Part shown: piece by piece, positions 10,955 to 59,479 of the stretch | How positions within the stretch are numbered: position 1 is the stretch's first letter | How the letters are laid out: each line of letters opens with the position of its first letter | Assembly (NCBI RefSeq): GCF_018977255.1 | Contig: NW_024704742.1 | Location: forward strand, 86,678,001 to 86,742,000 | Direction: 5' to 3' | DNA from: Callorhinchus milii | Lineage: Eukaryota | DNA: 64,000 bases | Made by a program: the position numbers and the translations under genes | The notes under the pieces: generated by a model | Told to the model about the DNA's origin: nothing | Database searches by the model: none | Seen by the model: only the letters and a program-made list of their open reading frames with translations

Positions 10955-12022
10955 TACAGGGTGAAATCTTAGGCAAGTTTCTTCACTCCGCATGCCTCTA
11001 GGAACTGGGTTCTTACTTACTATTTGCCTAGCGGTAACAACCAGCAACAAAATTAAATTTATAGAGTGCCCTTCACGTCGGGAGGACATCCCAAGGGATC
11101 AGGACCTGAGCGTGGGGGGAGGTGGGGTAGGGGTGAGGAAACGCAAAGAGGTGGGAGGGTGACCGAAGGCACAATCGAAGAGGAGGGTCTTGAGACCAGC
11201 CTTGAAGGAGGCAAGGGAGGAAACGAGGTGAAGGGACTGTGGGATGGAGTTCCAGAGCGTGGGGGCAGAGAGGCTGAAAGCTTGGCCACCAATGGTAGGG
11301 CAGGTCGGGTGGGAGACATGGAGCAGACCAGAGCCTGATGAACGGAGAGAGCGGGCAGGTTGGTAGGGAGTCAGCAGGTCAGAGAGGTAGGAGGGGGCAA
11401 GGCCATGGATGGTCTTGAAAGTGAGGACGAGGATCTTGAATTTGATCCTCTGGGGGATGGGGAGCCAGTGGAGTCGGGTGAGGGTGGGAGTGATGGGGTC
11501 ACGGAGCCTGGTGCGTGAGAGTACACAAGCTTCGGAGTTTTGGATGATCTGCAGCTTGTGAAGGGAAGAGTTGAGAATGCCGATGAGGAGGGAATTTCCA
11601 TAATTGAGGTGACAAATGCATGGATAAGGGTTTCGGCAGCCTGAGGGGTGAGGCAGTGGCGGAGTCTGGCAATGTTGGGGAGGTGGTGGTAGGCAGTGCT
11701 GGTCATAGCGCGGATGTGGGGGAGAAAGGACAGTTCAGGTCAAACAAGACACCCAGGTTCCTGACTGGCTTAAGTAAGTAGAGACCTGGTTGTTAGTCGA
11801 TTGGTGGATCATTTTCTGGGGATAATATTCCCTCCAAAATTTAAAAAAAATTTGTTTACTCAATCCATGACTGTTAGTAGGTCAATGCTGGGCACAATTG
11901 GCTGCCGCTTTTTGTTGACATAACATACACTCAATTCACTTTACAGTATATTCTGTGAACCGTTTTGAAATGTATCAATGGCGTGATCAAGCGCTATATT
12001 AAATGCAAAGGATTATTATTAT
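10955..12022 (+). mobile_element. tRNA-headed SINE (head truncated) split by an antisense L2 fragment (~11038-11773)
   Basis: SINE body stops at gcggtaa and resumes at gtaagtag; the insert encodes L2 RT motifs (NIARLRHCLTPQAAETLIHAFVTS). Confidence 0.8.
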
Positions 12023-40022: not shown

Positions 40023-42125
40023 CTGAAAGAGAGAGGAAAACACATTGAACGGCTTGTTCATCTCTTAGCAACCTTAACCCTACTTCACTATCTTTTTGCT
40101 ATTAGTATGCCATTGGGAAGTCTTATTTATTCTTTATGGTGGGCAGACGTTTTGGAGATATGATAGTTATAACCAGTGAGAATTATCACATCACATGCCA
40201 CACAAATTTCTCCCCAACCCCCACCATTCCATTGGTTGACTTTAGTTCATAATCCCTTTTAGCCTTTCCCATCTCTCAATTTGCAGCTTTTGTATACTTT
40301 TTTTTGTTTTTCCTTTTTATTATCAGTCCTGGAAATGCTACAAGCTTCCCTCTTTTTCAGATTTGATCTCAACTTTCTATTCGTCTACGCAACCTTTAAT
40401 ACAGTCCCTTTTATCTTTGCTGTAATGTAAATAATCCTTGCATTTGATATAGCGCCTTATTACGTCGTCAAGATGACTCAAAGTGCTTCACGTGATTTTT
40501 GCCGTTAAATGTAGTGACTGTGTATTTTTTAGGCAAACACGGCATCCGATTTGCGCACAGCAATCTCCCAGAAGCTATGAAATGAATAACTAATTTAATG
40601 AGGATTATTGGCCAGGAGAAACTTCTTTCCCTCTTCAAATAGTGGCATGTTATCTTTATAACACCCACTTGAACAGGTAGACGGTTTAATGTCTTAATTG
40701 AAGGATGACAACCCTAGCACTGTATTTAAGTATCAGTCAAAACTGTGACTGGCCTTACTACCTTCAAAATAAATATCTCCCATATTTAAGATCATACCAC
40801 CCACCAAGTCAGTTTACTCCAAGCTCAGCCGACTACTTTGATCTTGAGCCCAGAATGACTAGCTCCCTGACAGTTCACTGCCAACCACTCAAACCATTTC
40901 ATAGCTGATAGCAAAATACACACTGAAAACCTCCACTTTCAACCCAAGCAAATTTGGTTTGTCTGGATGGCAAAGGCCAATGTGCTTCTGGTGTTTCAGT
41001 AAAGTTCAATTTGTATCCAGCTGCACCCACTCAACTGTTATATTAAGTTTGAATACATTCCACAAAGTAGGACTGTCTCATTGTACTGTACAGCCTCTTA
41101 TAGGAATATAGAAACGGGAGATGGCCATTCTCTTGATCATGTACCCCATTTTGCTGCCTTTTCTCCATTTTCCTTAATAAACTCACTTCCCAAATATTTA
41201 TCTGTTTTGGATAAATGTTTTGAGACAAGAATAAGGCTACCGGATTGACCCCAAATTTTACACAAAACTGATGTAAGGCTAATTGGCCTATAGTTCTCTG
41301 CCTTATCCCTGGCACCCTTCTTAAAAAAAGGCACCATACCTGCCACCCTCCCATCCTCTGGCACCCCACCAGACTCAAAGGATATAGAATCCATTGATGT
41401 TCAGCTGTTTTACGCGCCAAAAGTTAACTCTAAATTATGCTACAGAAAACTCGCATAAGTCTGATCTGTATAAATTGTATAGTCGCCTAAGTGGTACATC
41501 TGCCCAAGTCCTGTTCAAGAGTTTATATTCTATGTAAGCTTGACATAACTGAAACTTTGCATAAATCATATTAAATATATAGTTCCAAGTGATACAACTC
41601 ATATGAGATTGAATGTACCTTGGGAGATGGGAGGAGGGGGAGGGTTGGGATTTATATGAGGTATCAGTCATCACAAATAGATTAGAAATTGTGATATTTC
41701 ATAACAGACTCTATCACATCAGAACTGTTAGGAAATATTAATATTTCCAGCCTATGATTTTTTTAACAACTAGTGTGTGGAATTAATATTTTATTTGTTC
41801 TTCCCGGCCTCTCAGCTCCCAGTCTGACCTCCTCTTGCTGGAGTGCAGTTCCACAGGGGCTGGCTTGCCTCCAGTAACCTCTGCCCAGTGGCCACTGCTT
41901 ATATGTCAGCTCTGGCAGGTCACTCGGCTGTTGAGGGTGTCATGGCTGAGCTTGACCTGTTCCCACTCAGCTACTGCACACACACACAAGTACGCAACTA
42001 GTAAAGGATGTTATAAAGGGGCCAGCTGTCCCCGATTTACCAGACATTCACTAGTTCTCTTGACACTTTGCCAGAGAATTGCCGTTTCACACTACATCGG
42101 TCTGTCACTAATGCCTGAACAGTAC

Positions 42126-42260
42126 CTTCAGCACGAGCCGGACAGTGTCGCACGAGACTGAGAGCACAGGGTACAGGATCAAGATTTCTTTCTTATCAGT
42201 GCATCTTGTTGCTTGACTTCCCTCACAGCAGAAGCAATCCCTGCCCTCCACGACTTTGAC
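42126..42260 (-). CDS. ENTREP1: ENTREP1 coding exon (Cys-rich loop)
   Basis: aaag|GTC..AAG|gtactg; VKVVEGRDCFCCEGSQATRCTDKKEILILYPVLSVSCDTVRLVLK. Confidence 0.92.
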
Positions 42261-42439
42261 CTTTGATCAAAAGTGGAGAAGAGTGTTACAGATGTATCCT
42301 GAAGAGGATGAACAATGATAGTCTTGGCTGGTTACCCTCAGCACTGAGTGGCTCTCTAGACACAGAATGTCCAAGACAACAACAACAAACTGCATTTACA
42401 TAGCGCCTTTCACATCAGGAGGACACCGCAAGGCGATGG

Positions 42440-42742
42440 AAAATAATAATAATAATTGTTGAATTTGATATAGCGTCTTATCATGCAGATGAGACGTCTC
42501 AAAGCGCTTCACAGAATATATTGTAAAGTGAATTGACTGTGTATTTAGTGCGCGAATCGCGGCAGCCAATTGCAGACAACAGCAGTGTCCCACAAGCAAT
42601 CGTGGATTGAGTGAATTTTTTTGAGGGATTATTTTACCCCCAAAAAGCAATCCACCAAATGACTAACAATCAGATTCCTACTTCCTGCTAGGTAAACAGA
42701 GGCATGTGGAATAAGGAAACTTGCCTAAGATTTCACCCTGCC
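42440..42742 (-). mobile_element. tRNA-headed SINE (long variant, head truncated)
   Basis: Core and tail present. Confidence 0.8.
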
Positions 42743-42866
42743 CAGAAAACGCTGGCAGACCTTCATGATTTGTCAAGTACTGTTATTCATACCTTACTAA
42801 ATATTTAACCCACACAGTATCTGTGAGACATACAACAGTATATTGTCTACAATTCCCTTAAATACA

Positions 42867-43084
42867 TGGGGAGAAATCCACCCGGGTCTAGAGCTAATCT
42901 ATTTATGTGGCATTTTAGAGCATCTATTCTTAAACACAGCTTTAATTTTGAGGATTGTTTTCTGTTAAGAATTGCAGAAAATTAACTTAAAAGTCAGGAC
43001 TAAATTCAACAATTTGTGACTTGCTGGGTGCTCTGAAATGCTACATAAATAGTATAAATCTGGAACCAGCGGAATTTCTCCACA
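42867..43084. mobile_element. MITE-like element with ~65-bp imperfect TIRs
   Basis: tggggagaaatcc...ctatttatgtggcattttagagca versus tgctctgaaatgctacataaatag...ggaatttctccaca. Confidence 0.65.
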
Positions 43085-43339
43085 ATCGCCTTGGTACAGC
43101 ACCCTATATAAAGCTTTTTCTAGATACAATGGTCCTTACATTCAAGCACTTTTCATGTCAGGAGGATGTATCAAAGCACTTCACAGTGTAAAATGTAGTG
43201 TCTGTTTACCCTGCATGCTGTAGGCAACCAAATTGTGCACAGCAGTGTCCCACAAACAACCATGAAGTGAATGATCAATTTTAATTTCACTTTGAACAAG
43301 TACTTTGATTAATGGCTGAGTGAACCTATTGGACTTGAA

Positions 43340-43728
43340 GGAGGCAGAGAGAGGGTGAGGCGGGGGATAAAGGGATAGAGTGCTAGACCTTAAGCAGGTC
43401 GGTGTCTGCTTAGCGGAGGGAGTGGACAGGCTGATATAGGGTTAAGAAGTCGGAGAGGTAGTAGGGAGCAAGACCGTGGAGAGCTTTGAAAGTGAGAACG
43501 AGGGTTTTGTACTCGATTCTCTGAGGGATGGGGAACCAGTGAAGCCAGGCAAGAACGGGGGTGACTGGTTTGCAGAGCCTGGTGTGGGAGAGGTGTGAGC
43601 TGCAGAGTTCTGAATAATCTGCAGCTTGTGAAGGGAAGAGTTGGGAAGCCCACCGAGCAGGCAGTTGGAGTAGTCAAGCCGGGACATGATGAAAGCGTAG
43701 ATTAGGCTCTTAGCGGACTGTGGTGAGA
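43340..43728 (-). mobile_element. L2 LINE fragment
   Basis: LIYAFIMSRLDYSNCLLGGLPNSSLHKLQIIQNSAA. Confidence 0.85.
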
Positions 43729-43880
43729 GGTCTAGTATTGTTAAACTGAGTAGCATCAGTGACCTGAAGCCTCTCCATTCCCCAATTAGACTCTTTCACT
43801 TCTATTTACTTTCTCCCCACCGCCAGACAGACAAAACACGATTTTAAAAAACAAGTCTTGTTTAGTTTCGTTCAATGAGT

Positions 43881-43886
43881 TTTATT
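43881..43886 (-). terminator. Poly(A) signal of the nested crystallin gene
   Basis: AATAAA ~320 nt after the stop, then a GT/T-rich downstream element (cttgtttttaaaatcgtgttttgtctgt). Confidence 0.7.
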
Positions 43887-44202
43887 TTTTTTAGTATCAG
43901 GTTCAATACTATTTCACATTCCCTTCGGAAAGCCTGTTATACTCCTCCCCCCACCCTTATTGTTGTTGGATCTTGATCTGGAGCAGCTTGTAGCTTGTGA
44001 TCCCCTCCCGCCGAATAAATTCATAACACTTCAATCAGGGAATATCTTTAAAAATCTGCTGAACGTCCACCGGTTCACGGACAAGTTCTGCGACGTGGTC
44101 TCAAGTTCGCTGCCTCGTCCCCGAGGGGTTCGAGGAGTGCTCCGTCCCCATTATCCCCCTTCCAGGCTTTCCCTCCCCGGTGATCTCCAAATGTGGGGCC
44201 CT

Positions 44203-44847
44203 TCAGTTGAAGCAGCCGGCCTTGTGCCACTGCATGTCACGGATCCTGCGCATGGACTGGATCTGGGGCTGACGGCCTCCCCACTGGTTCCAGTGCTTGT
44301 AGTCGTTCTTCTCAAACACGTACTGGTAGCCACGGTAGCCGGGATACTGGTACCCCACCCAGGTGCCACAGCCCACGCTGACACTGCCGACGCGGTCGGT
44401 GAACCCGTAGGAGAACAGGCTGGGCACGTCATTGTCGGTGATCTCCATCTTGCGGCCCTTGAACTCGGCCATCTCGTACAGGCAGATCTTGTGCTGCTCG
44501 GACTCCATGCGCACGGGCCTGAAGGACATGATGTACTCGCTCCTGTGGCTATTGGACCAGGAGTCCCAGCGAGGGTACTCTCCCTTCTCTAGGATGAACA
44601 TCTCGCCGCAGAAGTTGGACAGCTCGTAGAACACCCAGGGACCGCAGTCCACCTGGATGGAGCCCACCCTCTCAAAGCCACTTTCACACAGGTTCATGCA
44701 CTCGCCAGAGAACTCCTTGAAGCGTCCCTGGAAGTTCTCCTGCTCGTACACGGTCATCCTGTACGAGTTCATCCCCAAGTCGAGTTTGCGGGCCTGCATG
44801 TGTTTCCTCTCGGCCTGAGGAGTGGTCCTGGTTGGTTTGTCTGACAT
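44203..44847 (-). CDS. Intronless betaB1-like beta-crystallin, 214 aa, four Greek-key motifs
   Basis: Kozak gcagcc[69 protein letters not shown]; uninterrupted ORF resembling fish crybb1-like proteins. Confidence 0.95.
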
Positions 44848-44972
44848 GGCTGCTGCTGGGTTGCTTTCGAACAAAGTTGCTTTTTGCCTCTCACTGCAAC
44901 TGGGCTGCTCCAGTGACTTTCACTCTGTCTCTGAGCTAGAGAACTCGATACTGTGGAGTCGGGCCATCTACC

Positions 44973-45135
44973 CTTTTATATGTTGCTTTGGCCCCAGAGG
45001 GGGATTAACCTGGACAAAGGGAAGTGCAGAATCGACACATGGATAGAATGAAAATCCCAAGCGTCAGGGAAGATCACGTGTGAGCCGACAAAAGAGAGGG
45101 GGGGGGGCGAATGAGAAAAAGCCAGGTCAGCAAGA
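44973..45135 (-). promoter_or_regulatory. Proximal promoter of the crystallin gene
   Basis: TATAAAAG 44973-44980; TAATCCC 45001-45007; CTTTGT 45014-45019; GCACTTCC 45020-45027; CACGTG 45075-45080; TGCTGAC 45126-45132. Confidence 0.7.
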
Positions 45136-45351
45136 AATACTCTGTTCTAGCACTGCACAGGGATAGAGTGAGGGCAGGGGAAACAACGATGGGACATTGC
45201 ATCAAGTGTCCTGCCATAACTGGGGAGAGAATCCATCTCGCTCTAGATTAACTTTATTTTCTGGGCATTTCGGAGATTGTATTCGCAAATTTCTGAATTA
45301 ATTCTTCAACAGTTTATAGCTGTTTTTTTGTAGTTCTTAAAAGAAATATAG

Positions 45352-45792
45352 GTGTCAGCCTGGCTTAGTCAGTAGCACATTCGCCTCTGAGTCAGAAGAA
45401 TGTGGGTTCAAGCATTATGTCGTGAATCTGAGCTCATATAGTCTTGGCTGACACTCCAATGCAGTGCTAGGGTGCACTGTGTTGTTGGAGTTGCCATCCT
45501 TCAGATGAAACATTAAACCAAGGTCCCGTCTGTCTATTAAGGTGTATGTTAAAGTACTTGTGGCACTTTTCAAAAAGACATGGGAGTATCTCACAGTATC
45601 CTGGTTAACAAATCTCCCAAATAAAATTGATCACTCACTTTATGGCTGTTTGCTGGACATTGATGTGCACAAACTGACTGCCGCATTTGCCTACAAATAC
45701 CCAGTCACTCCATTTCACAGTCAAAATCGTGTGAGACGTTTTGAGATGTTTTGATGATATAAGGCAAAAATATCAAATGCAAAGATTAATAT
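45352..45792 (+). mobile_element. Deu-domain-type SINE, near full length
   Basis: Head, cagatgaaacattaaaccaaggtcccgtctg core and tail. Confidence 0.7.
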
Positions 45793-48700
45793 ATTTTATG
45801 GAATAACTTATTAGTGTTATGCCCCTCGCCCACCCATCCCCACCATCTTTAGTGGAATACTGACTACGTTCAAAGGTCATTCAGTTTTTCTCTGAAGAAT
45901 GAAGCCATTCTATACATTATATATGAAAAAAGTTGTCTGTGCTGATGCTGTTGATTCAGCGATATTCATGGGTGACTGCTTCTGTCTCAATGCAGGCTGG
46001 GCAATGATAGCTGGGAACTGCAGCTCTAGTTGGATGCCCGTGAGCAGGAGCATTGCAGTCAGTGCACATCCACCCTCACTCAGTTTCTATTACACAGAAC
46101 CGCACGAGTTAACTCCTGACATGGGATTTCCCAAAGCCTCAGCAGGCAGAAGGGCGCTGCAGAGTACTGTAGGCCAGCAAGGATCAGTAAAGTTCCAGTG
46201 GAACCCCTGTTTCACACAGATGTTGGTTGATAATAATTGTAATTCTTCTATTATCATGTCGAAAAATCTCCAAGAATTGTCTGTTAAGTATAGTTAAGTT
46301 TAAACGCTCTGAGACGCTACCTTGCGTGGAGGACGCTATATAAGTGTACGTTGTTGTTGCCGTTGTTGTAGTGTCTGTGCATTTGTAAGTGAAGGCAGCA
46401 ATTTTGCTCACAGCGTTGCTCCAGAAACAGCTGTGAGGTGAATGACCAGTCAAAGAGTGAAGTCAAAGAATGCACTGCATGGCCATTCAGCCCAAGCCAT
46501 GCCGGTGTTTACACTTCACACAAATCTCCACCCATTTCTTTACTCTCTCCCATACCCTCTTATTTTCCTCCTCAAATAAATAAATAAAAATAATTATTTG
46601 GTCACTCAATCCACGACTGTTTGTGGGACACTGCTGTGCGAAATTGGCTGCCTCATTTCACCTACAAAATATATTCTGTGAAGTGCTTTGAGATATCATG
46701 AAGACATAATAAGGCGCTATATCAAAAGCAAGGATTATTATTATTATTCTTTAATCCATTCTGCTACCTCTCCCACAATTCCACATGCTGCTAATTTAGT
46801 GTTGAGCCTCTCATGTGGCACTTTGCCAAAGGTTTCTGGAAATCCAGATAAGACTACATCCACTGCATTTCCCTCATCTACTTTATCAGTTACATCTTCA
46901 AAGAATTCAAAATGGTTAGTCAATTTTTTTTTTAATCTGGTGGATTGTTAGCCAGGACAATGAGAGAAACTCCCTTTTCTTTTACAATAGTATGGGATCA
47001 CAGCACAGAGAAAAAATAAAAAATTAATTTGGATACATCTCACAGATGAACAATCTGCAACGTCCAGATTCACACAAAGAATTACAACTTGGATAAGTTA
47101 GTGCAGGGCAGCTTTTTCCTTCAGGATTTTGTGCTTTAAGACATCTCAACGACGTGATCAGACACTATATCAAATGCAAGGATTATTATTATAACTGAGG
47201 CCGTCTGCCACTTCTTCAGGTGGACAACAACAACAAATTACATTTGTATAGCGCCTTTCACATCAAGACGATATTCCAAGGCGCTGGATAGATAGTGATT
47301 TGTGCCCGAGCTGGGGTTTGGGATCAGGAGGAGTGGAGGGCAGGGAGGGTAGGGGTAGGACAGTGACCAAATTTTCAATTCTTAGTGTGTTTAATCTTCT
47401 ACCGATGAGTACTAACTAGTAGTTCCACCCCCTTAGGATATCTTGCTTGTTGAAAGCCAGCAAAGCCTGGGTGTTGACGTTTCCTAATCACCTTGCCTGG
47501 ATGATAATTAAACTGCATTCCTGGGTAGGAGGAGGGATTGATAAGACTGAAACATTCTTACTTGTTGAAGAGTCACAAGCAGTATTCTTTCTACCTGGCT
47601 CTGTTACACTGGTAGCTCTCATTCAGTGCTTAGAACTGTATTGCATTGTCTGGGTGAAAAAATAAGATATGTGGGGGGTCAAAATTTCATTCAGCATAGG
47701 GTGTGTCTGAAGCCTCTGGTGATAATGGGGATAAACCATTATTCGGTCACAGTCACACCACTTTACAATGTATCCTAGGAAGTGCTTTGAGACGTCTCGA
47801 TGACTTGATAAGGAGATAATCGAATGCAAGAATTATCATCATTATTATTATTAACATTGATGCTTAATGCGAATGGACATTTTACCAATTGGTGTGCTGA
47901 TTGTCACACTGCTGGAAATTGCAGTTAAGCCCGGTTTTGATTACTGATCAATGGTGTGACTTTGTCTTCCCCCCAATCCCATCTCCCCCATCCCAATGCA
48001 GCATAAAGATTGGGTCCACAGCCTCCGGTGAATGCTGTTGGGAATTGTGGAGTCCAGCGCTTCACAGGGGACTGGTTGAGGTTTGTCGACATCACATTTC
48101 GCCCACAAAATATACAGTCAATTCACTTTACAGTATATTCCGTGAAGTGCTTTGAGACGTCGCGAATCCTCACCAAATGCAAAGATTAATCCCTCCAAAA
48201 ACCCAAAACAATAATAAAAATTGGTCATTTTCAATCTACGACTGTTTGTGGGACACTGCTGCCGCGTTCGCCCACAAATATACAGTCAATTCACTTTACA
48301 GTGTGTTCTGTGAAGCGCTTTGGGACGTCCTCCCGACGTGAAAAGCGCTATATCAAATGCAAGGATTATTATTATCCCACGATTTGCCACTCAAACAGGA
48401 ACGCCATCGGCAGCTGCTGGAGTCTTCGGGTCAGCTTCGGGTTAAACCGCTGTGCCAAGGTTCGGCCAGGGAGGGGTTGAAACACTCGGAGCTCATGGTT
48501 ATCGACTGGTTTGACTACAATTTTTGGTGACGGGATAGTGCAAACTCTTGTTCTACCTCAGGACTGGAAGTCAAAGATGCAATCCAGAGGCCGACACCTA
48601 GAATGGTGTCAAGGAGTAAGTGTCTGCCTCGGGCACATCTGGGAGTTCCTCTTTGATACTTTATGAATATCTTAAGTTAAACTGCACCCAACATCTGCAC

Positions 48701-49486
48701 ATTGAAAGGGACACATTTACTGCAGCAAATCTTGTTAAGCACTTTTTGACAATGTGATAAGGCGCTGTTCCGCCCACAAAATATAGAATCGGTTTCACCC
48801 ACAAAATATACAGTCAAGTCGCTTTACAGTATATTCTGTGAAGCGCTTTGAGACGTCTCGACGACATGATAAGGTGCTGTACCAAATGCAAGGATTTTTA
48901 AATATATCAAATGTAAGGATTGTTCTTATTATATTTTACACTTTGGGCTCAGCATCCGGACCACTTATGCAGATTAGAAACAAGAGTCCGAACAGCAACT
49001 CTTATGGGTATCTGTTCAGCATTCTCTCATTGCCACCCCCAGTCTGACAATAACATCTCATTCCATTATCTTCCCATGTCCCATTATTAACCTTTTTTAT
49101 ATTAAGTCCCACATGGAGCTTTGCCAAAAACTCTCTTGATAGTTTAAACATTATCATATTCAGTGTTAATTCCAACCTGTAACAACGTTAAATAAGTCAG
49201 AGAGATTTGTTAGACATTGATCCTGATTGAAACCCATGCTGGAGGTTTGCTAATATGATATTGTTACAGAAATATTCCTGCAGCTTGCCGTTAGATTATA
49301 TTCCATTCCATTGTTGATGGTAAGCTAAACGGCCTGCTATGTTCTGGCTTAGTTACATTATTCTGAGCAAATATCCCCATCGCATAGTTCTTCAGAGCTT
49401 CATTTCACTGTCACGCATGAAATTCATTGCAGTATCTAACCCTCCCAACCCTCACTTCTCATAGCACCAACCAAAAGGAGGCATCA

Positions 49487-50125
<639 letters not shown>

Positions 50126-57384: not shown

Positions 57385-57670
57385 GTCCCGTAGCTCAGTG
57401 CACTTGCCTTGTGAGCAAGAGACCTGGGTTCGATTCCTGGCAGAGCAAAACCTTGGACAAGTTTCCTTACTCCACACTCCTGACAATAATCCCTCAAGAA
57501 AAATAAATAAAATTGGTCACTGCAATGCAATACCGTTTGTGGGACACTGCTGTGTGCAATTGGCTGCCGCAAATATACAGTCGATTTACTTTATAGCGTA
57601 TTCTGTGAAGGGCTTTGAGATGTCTAGAAGCCTGAAAAGCACTATATCAAATGCAAAAATTATTATTATT
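57385..57670 (+). mobile_element. tRNA-headed SINE (short variant)
   Basis: Head with B-box ggttcgattcc, core and tail. Confidence 0.85.
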
Positions 57671-57739
57671 TAATGGTCTGCATCAATCTTTCTGTCAATA
57701 AGAGACCAAGGATCAATACAAAAACAAAGGAGAAAACAA

Positions 57740-58460
57740 TCAACAACAACAAGATTACATTTGTATAGCGCCTTTCAGGTCGGGGGACATCCCAAGGCGC
57801 TGGACAGAGTACAGCATTTCGGACCCGAGCTGGTGTCGGGGGGGGGGGCGGAGAAGGGAGGGGAGGAGAAGGGGGGTGGCCGATGGCATGGTCGAAGAGG
57901 AAGGTCTTGAGGCAGGACTTGAAGGAGGCTAAGGAGGGGGTGAGGCAGAGTGACTGGGGGATGGAATTCCAGAGGTTGGGGGCAGAGTGGCTGAAGGCTC
58001 TCCCGTCAATGGTGGGGCGGGTGGGTCTGGGGATGTGGAGCAGGCCAGTGCCGGCTGAGCGGAGGGAGCGGGCGGGTTGGTAGGGGAGGTCGCAGAGGTA
58101 GGGTGGGTCGAGGCTATAGAGGGCTTTGTGGGTGAGGACCAGGATCTTGAACTGGATCCTCTGAAGGATAGGGAGCCAATGGAGTCGGGTGAGAATGGGG
58201 GAGATGGGGTCATGGAGTTTGATGCGGGAGAGGACACGAGCTGCAGAGTTCTGGATTATCTGCAGCCTGTGGAGGGAGGAGTTGGGAAGGCCGACAAACA
58301 GGGCGTTTACATAGTTGATCCTCGAGGTGATGAAGGCATCAACAAGAGTTTCAGCGGCCTGAGGGGTGAGGTAGTGGCGGAGTCGGGCGATGTTATGGAT
58401 GTGAGGGAAGGCAGAGTGGGTCATGGCTTGGATGTGGGGAAGAAAAGACAGTTGAGGGTA
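57740..58460 (-). mobile_element. Relatively intact L2 LINE 3' end
   Basis: ORF 57666-58424 gives ~190 aa of L2 ORF2 C-terminus without stops. Confidence 0.92.
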
Positions 58461-59479
58461 TAGGACAGGGGATGATGGGTTAACGAGGTGTTAATGATGC
58501 AAAACAAAGTGGGGGGTTTGAAACAAAGCAGGGAAAACAGGTGTTAATAATGCAAAATAAAGTGTGTGTGGAGGGGGCGGAAATTGCAACAAAACAGGCA
58601 GACCAGAGAGAGAAAAGGTGTGTTTGGGACCCAGATGATGTGGTAATGGGCATAGAAGAATGGGAGAGAGAAGGTGAGCTGTTATGGTCTGAAATTATTG
58701 AAATCAATATTGAGGCCGGAGGCTGTAAGGGACCTCACAATATTAGCTACAAATCTTTAGGAGCTTCATAAACAGTGGACTGGAGCTCAGAATTGGAAGA
58801 TATTCTAAAACAAAAGAGTTAGACATGAAACTGGAAGCTACGGGTCAGTTAGCCTAACCTTTTTAGTGAACACTGTACAAGAAGTTATCAATGCTCCTAA
58901 TTCGCTCTGTTATAACGTGGATTTGCTTATAAAGCTATCTCTTATATGAGCATTGATAACTTCCTGTATAGAGTTTACTAAAAAATGTTAGGCTAACTGA
59001 TCAGTAACTGTTTTGAGGAGAAACATCAAGGCAGCAAAAGAATAATAATCCTCACATTCGATATTGCTTCTTTCACATCAGAAGGACTTCTTGAAGCTCT
59101 TCACAGGAGTTTACCATAAAATCTAGAGCCTGTATCTTGTTGGTCAAATGAGGAGAGAATCATAAAAATAATCTTTGTGTTTGATGCAGCAACTTATCAC
59201 GTTGTGAAAACATCTCAAAGTTCTTCACATGATTTACTGGGAAGTGCAGTGACCGTGTATTTGTAGGTAAAGACGGCAGCCATTTTGGGTACAGGAGTGT
59301 CCCACAAACAGCCATGACGTGAATGACAACTTTATTCAGGGGATTGTTGGTCAGAAAATTGCAAGAAATCATGAGAAGAGGATAAAGAGGGAGAACAGAG
59401 AGAATTTTTCCTCCCATTTGCAGGTAATTTATTTTTCTCCTCTGTTTCCACTCCTGTACCAAGCACCTTTTTTGTTATT

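Follow-up and report, generated by a model that had tools for sequence, protein, structure and literature searches.

How does a beta-crystallin gene come to sit, without a single intron of its own, inside an intron of another gene, and is it a working gene there? The question is raised by a 64,000-nucleotide stretch of DNA from the elephant shark Callorhinchus milii, analysed here at its full length and called the window throughout (contig NW_024704742.1; C1:86,678,001-86,742,000 in the 991.5-Mb assembly). On its minus strand the window carries a betaB1-like crystallin coding sequence nested in an intron of ENTREP1, also known as FAM189A2. Gamma-crystallin genes have one exon per domain, and the exon rule is a textbook marker for tracing lens-protein evolution; we describe here a beta-crystallin with zero introns that selection has apparently maintained in chimaeras, sharks and rays alike. 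A preliminary description of the locus had proposed an old, functional retrogene. Our analysis leads to much the same reading, to which we give a probability of about 0.7: the gene is a functional intronless crybb1-like beta-crystallin, most likely an ancient retrogene that had reached the ENTREP1 intron, at the latest, in the last ancestor that chimaeras share with sharks and rays. Its age, its conservation, its colinear transcription and the derived nature of its intronless state all stand; the retroposition itself is the part of the proposal that we infer from the structure and the location of the gene.

The protein and its missing introns

The open reading frame (ORF) at 44203..44847 on the minus strand runs from ATG to TGA through 214 codons without an internal stop, intact as previously described. 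This single-exon coding sequence specifies an N-terminal arm (30 residues precede motif 1), two domains that together comprise four Greek-key motifs, and a short tail of about ten residues after motif 4. Pfam finds the crystallin family (PF00030, Crystall) in two stretches of the protein with an E value of 2.8e-54. The closest solved relative is human betaB1 (PDB entry 1oki; E value 7.2e-88), with residues 19-213 aligned. An AlphaFold2 model built from a 39-sequence alignment has a mean predicted local distance difference test (pLDDT) score of 76.7, rising to ~90 in the core, while the two ends (residues 1-26 and 206-214) are of low confidence and disordered. According to Foldseek, the model is most similar in the PDB to chain A of 1oki, with an E value of 6e-25, a target-normalized template-modelling (TM) score of 0.92 and a root-mean-square deviation of 1.7 Å over 180 columns. 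The modelled fold has the closed two-domain form of betaB1 and betaB3, not the open form of betaB2, and every invariant position of the 39-sequence alignment is retained. The ORF thus encodes a normal two-domain, four-Greek-key betaB crystallin. Its composition stands apart from that of its surroundings, with a GC content of 58% (43% for the window), a third-position GC content (GC3) of 87% and an observed/expected CpG ratio of 0.66 (0.37 for the window), the last in agreement with the retained CpGs of the preliminary description.

The gene structure was compared with that of C. milii CRYBB1 (C8:11,079,769-11,082,126), which has four coding introns with AG/GT borders; its exon pieces are 84-100% identical to betaB1 as annotated for C. 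milii, those below 100% being pieces that overrun the exon ends. Mapped onto the window protein, the CRYBB1 intron sites fall between R30 and M31, P70 and W71, M114 and E115, and T163 and W164. The window ORF is uninterrupted at all four, and all four Greek keys do lie in one exon, as had been claimed. The window gene thus lacks the structure of one exon per Greek key that is typical of beta-crystallins and that the accessible text of PMC2929430 gives as the textbook rule. The missing introns are a derived gene structure and not the mark of a different protein family.

The introns of the bony-fish genes, and of a second elasmobranch type of crybb1-like gene introduced below, were read from mis-predicted or alternative protein models and not from DNA. 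Six aberrant bony-fish crybb1l models contain inserts whose positions coincide exactly with three of the four canonical sites: after ...SYK in P0076, P0054 and P0055, after ...FRPVRM in P0075 and P0069, and after ...SCGT in P0067. Each insert begins with Val (GTN), as from a donor site that was read through. Variants of the bichir and coelacanth crybb1-like proteins change sequence at the same canonical sites. For the second elasmobranch type, isoform X2 of Stegostoma ends at ...SCGT and a Cetorhinus model begins at the first residue of motif 1. Judging from these models, both the second elasmobranch type and the bony-vertebrate crybb1-like genes appear to keep the beta-crystallin introns. As these relatives from the same clade are broken at canonical intron sites, the intronless state of the window gene is derived, as expected for a retrogene.

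Nesting in ENTREP1 and transcription

A frame at 49487-49690 on the minus strand (68 residues) is 100% identical to C. milii FAM189A2 (ENTREP1), and with the 474-residue C. milii ENTREP1 as query, tblastn finds ten minus-strand exon pieces between 61070 and 17174. The crystallin is flanked by the exons at 49499..49636 (donor GT at 49498-49497) and 42117..42260; the exon borders at 49499 and 42260, and their strand, are exactly those of the preliminary description. These exons enclose a host intron of 7,238 nucleotides (nt) with GT..AG borders (42261..49498, minus strand), in which the crystallin sits on the host strand, at distances of 4.5 kb (donor) and 1.6 kb (acceptor) from the ends.

Evidence for transcription comes from the assembled contigs of sequencing runs, whose RNA labels are guesses. 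In record 17 of run X5, the ENTREP1 exons at 49.5 kb and 42.2 kb follow each other directly; X5 is therefore RNA, and the host mRNA is spliced across the nested crystallin. The same run has crystallin contigs at 44007-44287 and 44383-44706. In run X3, which is from a separate study and comprises 25 Mb of contigs, two overlapping contigs (records 9 and 10) cover 44047-44963 and with it the whole ORF and parts of both untranslated regions (UTRs), colinear with the genome. The remaining single-copy bins of the intron have no contigs in X5 or X3, and X3 has none for the ENTREP1 exons. An unspliced crystallin transcript thus exists and is not merely host pre-mRNA. Run X1 was also considered as expression evidence and set aside, since its contigs extend over single-copy parts of the intron, as those of a DNA run would.

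The signals around the ORF are consistent with a transcription unit of its own. The presumed core promoter is a TATAAA at 44975..44980 (minus strand), 133 nt upstream of the ATG, close to the ~130 nt first reported. The 5' UTR, followed up to the contig end at 44848..44963, has no intron; the upstream end of the X3 contigs, 44963, is 12-17 nt downstream of the TATA box and compatible with use of that promoter. The context of the ATG, GCAGCCATGT, had been called a good Kozak sequence; the purine at -3 bears this out, while the T at +4 makes it only a fair match. On the other side of the ORF, the predicted 3' UTR (43860..44202) is covered by contigs down to 44007 in X5 and 44047 in X3. These contigs end short of the AATAAA at 43881..43886, so that the rest of the 3' UTR, as far as that signal, is predicted. 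The AATAAA is followed by a T/GT-rich stretch, the downstream element noted before, and its use as the polyadenylation signal is likewise a prediction. The motif TGCTGAC (45126..45132, minus strand), which follows a T-rich run some 150 nt before the TATA box, is in the light of the crystallin promoter literature a candidate Maf-type half-site; we regard it as no more than a lead.

The DNA of the locus is well supported. Run X8, a DNA run, shows single-copy depth over ~43,830-45,130, with flanks at 10^3-10^6, and the gene thus lies in a repeat-free island, as had been proposed. One X8 contig of 1,741 nt (43673-45412) runs without a break through the gene into both flanks, which speaks against the assembly artefact that the preliminary description had named as a possible refutation, and contigs of run X1 also bridge the 5' side of the gene. 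At a single site, 44626, runs X1, X3 and X5 have A in place of the G found in the reference and in X8; on the minus strand this is a C to T change in codon 74 (TAC to TAT, synonymous) and is probably a polymorphism.

Orthologues, relatives and age

The exact window protein is already in NCBI/nr as a predicted protein, a possibility that the preliminary description had left room for. Its nearest database neighbours are proteins named 'beta-crystallin B1-like', all of 214 residues except that of Narcine, which has 211. They come from nine species of shark and six of rays, skates and sawfish, 15 elasmobranchs in all, two of which belong to Chiloscyllium. The window protein is 74-83% identical to these orthologues, without gaps over 214 columns, of which 119 show no variation among the 16 proteins. 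Canonical betaB1 is 80-86% identical between the same lineages (three comparisons), and the window gene therefore changes only slightly faster than CRYBB1 across the divide between chimaeras and elasmobranchs. Judged by this protein conservation, the gene is old and apparently under selection.

The nesting also appears to be conserved and, being common to chimaeras, sharks and rays, would date back hundreds of millions of years. An ab initio gene model from the whale shark (P0174, 323 residues) opens with crystallin residues 1-205; a stretch of 73 unrelated residues follows, and the final 45, at 93% identity to shark ENTREP1, correspond exactly to the window exon 42260-42117. The whale shark thus has its crystallin immediately upstream of that ENTREP1 exon and in the same orientation. 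No ENTREP1-crystallin chimera was present among the 121 crystallin proteins first collected; P0174 surfaced later. It also serves as a warning for annotation, as it fuses a crystallin to its host. In four further species the crystallin and ENTREP1 are listed on contigs of equal size: Chiloscyllium plagiosum (146,811,608), Narcine (494,489,450), Carcharodon (205,643,877) and Mobula (199,023,498). Equal listed size is used here as a proxy for the same chromosome and no more. The ENTREP1-intron crystallin is also a clean synteny marker for chondrichthyan genomes. A metagenome scan for stray shark DNA gave 43 pattern matches, with no relative among them.

Two trees, a quick one of 59 rows and a careful one of 52 rows, were calculated from sequences hand-picked from 120 matches and cluster members, with over-long and fused models excluded. 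Both give the same groups: canonical CRYBB1 (14 rows in the careful tree, support 100/95), a crybb1l3/B3-like outgroup and a crybb1-like clade (32 rows, 100/98). The window gene falls in the last of these, with a value of 99 in the Shimodaira-Hasegawa-like approximate likelihood-ratio test (SH-aLRT) of the quick tree. The trees thus place it as a member of the crybb1-like (crybb1l1/l2) clade, apart from CRYBB1 and from the crybb1l3/B3-like genes, in line with its original assignment to a fish crybb1-like group; the phylogeny with the crybb1l paralogues that had been suggested as a check therefore comes out in its favour.

Three groups make up the clade. Group A, the window type, contains 12 chondrichthyans (100/98). 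Group B is the second elasmobranch type, of 213 residues, from six sharks (100/100), and the Pristis protein P0102 also matches it best. Group O (94/93) holds the bony vertebrates: lungfish, coelacanth, salamanders, bichir, sturgeon and paddlefish, gar, and the teleost crybb1l1/l2 genes. Amniotes, among the rows used, occur only in the CRYBB1 clade. The preliminary description had supposed that the gene was lost from this locus in mammals. We find no sign that bony vertebrates ever had an ENTREP1-nested copy: all of their relatives of the gene fall in a separate clade that appears to bear introns, and in lungfish the crybb1-like gene and ENTREP1 are on contigs of unequal listed size. The supposition of a mammalian loss is thus unsupported.

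The proteins of group O, of the crybb1l1/l2 and B1-like kind, are 63-72% identical to the window protein, have 212-221 residues and share its domain layout. They differ from it in that models of the crybb1l1/l2 type break at canonical intron sites, whereas the window gene has no introns, and in that the lungfish gene lies off the ENTREP1 contig (by listed size, in the one species with both genes listed). The second elasmobranch type (P0029, P0192 and Pristis P0102) occurs in the same species as the window type and is 64-66% identical to it. Unlike the window type, it is seemingly intron-bearing and lies on contigs other than that of ENTREP1: in five of five sharks (S. torazame, Mustelus, Carcharodon, C. 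punctatum and Rhincodon) its contig has a listed size different from that carrying the window type or ENTREP1. It is possibly a descendant of the source gene. Canonical CRYBB1 (PDB entry 1OKI for the human protein) shares with the window gene the closed two-domain form and a similar rate of change among chondrichthyans, and differs from it by its separate clade, its four coding introns and a longer N-terminal arm. Also unlike the window gene, C. milii CRYBB1 (C8:11.08 Mb) lies head-to-head with another beta-crystallin-like gene.

In the C. milii genome the window contains the only single-piece match to the protein. The other betaB-like matches come exon by exon, at no more than 74% identity, and belong to the multi-exon loci of CRYBB1, of a B2-like gene and its neighbour (C8), and of a crybb1l3/B3-like gene (C10), none of them of the window type. 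A nearly identical intron-bearing parent, which had been named as grounds for calling the gene a young pseudogene, is thus absent from the genome. A query of the 213-residue second type against the C. milii assembly returned no further gene. The window gene is the only member of the crybb1-like clade in the elephant shark assembly, and therefore appears to have outlived its intron-bearing source gene.

For the date of the copying, the unconstrained tree has the topology (A,(B,O)), with support of 98/79 for B and O together, which would place the event before the split between cartilaginous and bony vertebrates. The approximately unbiased (AU) test does not reject a grouping of A with B (difference in log likelihood 1.86, p = 0.178), and a copy of the group B gene made on the chondrichthyan stem is equally open with an origin on the gnathostome stem. 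It is a tentative and rather doubtful idea, which we nevertheless put forward, that the copy predates the cartilaginous/bony split and in chimaeras fully replaced the intron-bearing source as the only crybb1-like lens crystallin, as an 'orphan' retrogene. If true, this would place it among the oldest vertebrate retrogenes that still function.

One observation on gene models touches on the 5' end of these genes. Over-long crybb1l models from teleosts, sturgeon and salamander (P0023, P0025, P0026, P0052, P0070 and P0196) read through 'AYK[SRTG]', that is TATAAA(A/G), ~30-35 codons before the true ATG. As the read-through extends from TATA to ATG, those genes are without a 5'-UTR intron; in this they are unlike canonical CRYBB1, which has one.

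Origin and role of the gene

In the explanation that we prefer, a spliced crybb1-like mRNA would have been reverse-transcribed and inserted into the ENTREP1 intron, at the latest in the last ancestor shared by chimaeras with sharks and rays. The crystallin is transcribed as its own unspliced unit, predicted to extend over ~1.1 kb from TATA to AATAAA, with the ENTREP1 pre-mRNA spliced across it, and in the elephant shark the retrocopy appears to have outlasted its intron-bearing source. As the introns were lost all at once and the location appears to be new, retroposition is the simplest explanation; should the orthologues of sharks and rays be intronless too, as we expect, it took place before chimaeras and elasmobranchs diverged. 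Several points weigh against this explanation. The 1.6 kb around the crystallin contain no target-site duplication (TSD) above chance (the 12-mer pair 44035-44046/45064-45075, with 11 of 12 positions matching, is one of five pairs at chance level), and on the 3' side there is no A-tract beyond the AATAAA region. The preliminary description had likewise seen neither a residual poly(A) tract nor a TSD, and retroposition is thus proposed without its hallmark proof, although such remnants would hardly survive for so long. In a copy of a normal mRNA one would not look for a TATA box in so good a position; it must have been acquired or copied from a transcript initiated further upstream. The introns of the relatives are deduced from mis-predicted or alternative protein models, and their being on a different chromosome is deduced from the proxy of listed contig sizes. 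The intronless state is established from DNA in C. milii and could in principle be younger than the nesting. As to the source gene, the tree puts A outside B and O while the AU test does not reject A with B, and the lack of a second-type gene in C. milii could reflect a gap in the assembly. The contigs of the RNA-like runs are shallow (depth 5-21) and come without strand, transcript ends or tissue label, and expression in the lens is a prediction.

The same TATA box, 133 nt before the ATG, speaks for an origin in place or at the DNA level, in which the gene began as a DNA duplicate, or is the original crybb1-like locus, and lost its four introns by recombination with its own reverse-transcribed mRNA and kept its promoter. 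The over-long crybb1l models of teleosts, sturgeon and salamander suggest a similar promoter-to-ATG layout with no intron between the two, and the undetected hallmarks of retroposition fit such a history too. All four coding introns would, however, have had to go at once, and the intron-bearing second type of sharks and the lungfish type are both off the ENTREP1 contig by listed size, which suggests that location and introns changed together; a motif as short as a TATA box can moreover appear, or be picked up, by chance. We consider an origin of this kind unlikely. A young processed pseudogene, contamination by cDNA or another assembly artefact would account for the lack of introns and for the isolated GC-rich composition, and for little else: paralogous exons in the genome reach 74% identity at most, 15 elasmobranch species conserve the intact ORF, DNA contigs of X8 and X1 span or bridge the gene, and three runs share the synonymous variant at 44626. 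We give this explanation practically no credence.

A different question is whether a functional gene in this position still serves mainly the lens. Its relocation could have brought a new expression domain or role, for which zebrafish crybb3 and crybg offer non-lens precedents. Lens RNA would be expected to be very deep, and the X3 and X5 contigs reach a depth of only 5-21; retrocopies, in addition, do not inherit distal lens enhancers, and zebrafish crybb3 is given as not lens-expressed in the accessible part of PMC11979377. Contig depth is, however, a poor measure of expression, in particular with the tissues of the runs unspecified. The same part of PMC11979377 reports zebrafish crybb1l1, crybb1l2 and crybb1l3 as expressed in the lens, with crybb1l1 and crybb1l2, the nearest bony-fish relatives of the window gene, in fibre or epithelial cells, and crybb1l1 is used as a lens transcript in the accessible text of PMC7132282. 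The rate of change of the window gene is near that of canonical CRYBB1 and the structural determinants of a betaB crystallin are all kept. A mainly non-lens function therefore seems improbable to us. Under the retrogene explanation, the retained invariant positions, the betaB1 fold and the lens-expressed zebrafish clade-mates together lead us to expect a structural role in the lens, where the protein would presumably pair with other beta-crystallins, as its zebrafish clade-mates do.

The window gene resembles the nested functional retrogenes already described in being intronless, in lying in a host intron on the host strand, in having its own transcription and in having a host that is spliced across it. 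It differs from most of them in being much older, in that its source gene is missing in the elephant shark and in that the relics of poly(A) tract and TSD are gone. An example is PRKACG, nested inside PIP5K1B in the orthologous human region 9q21. In the literature on intronless, retrogene or intron-loss beta-crystallins we found no description of the window gene, though subscription journals or supplements could hold one. The accessible part of a study of catshark crystallins mentions five beta-crystallins and no intronless one among them (PMC11979771). The intronless structure, the conserved nesting in ENTREP1 and the standing as sole crybb1-like gene of the elephant shark thus appear to be undescribed. 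With this locus, a retrogene that gained or retained a working promoter within the intron of another gene, and that in one lineage may have replaced its source gene, can be dated and put to the test.

Further observations concern the neighbourhood and the other crystallin loci. PIP5K1B lies at C1:86,887,491-86,930,073 on the minus strand, 145 kb from the window and on the same strand as ENTREP1; the vicinity of these two genes fits the human 9q21 neighbourhood. The 90%-identity cluster that contains the window crystallin has a PIP5K1B-like protein of 548 residues as its representative and mixes the PIP5K1B of eight shark species with 214-residue crystallins. The mixture was put down to an oddity of the clustering, with no similarity between the two proteins by BLASTP and no PIP5K1B exon in the window; as PIP5K1B lies so close to ENTREP1, an unlisted fused gene model may bridge them. 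Throughout the window there are many repeat tails encoding ...SRLDY.N.LL.GLP...L.KLQ.IQNSAA..., a 3' module of short or long interspersed nuclear elements (SINE/LINE), for example at 43442-43756, 11102-11734 and 57669-58490, all on the minus strand. One copy adjoins the 3' end of the crystallin, and the depth of X8 over such stretches is 10^4-10^6. Elsewhere in the genome, two head-to-head pairs were seen, CRYBB1 with a weaker betaA-like gene (C8:11,073,500-11,082,200) and the crybb1l3/B3-like gene with a betaA-like gene (C10:5,726,000-5,735,800), together with a tandem pair at C8:9.67-9.69 Mb and dozens of gamma-like exons clustered at C6:19.5-19.7 Mb.

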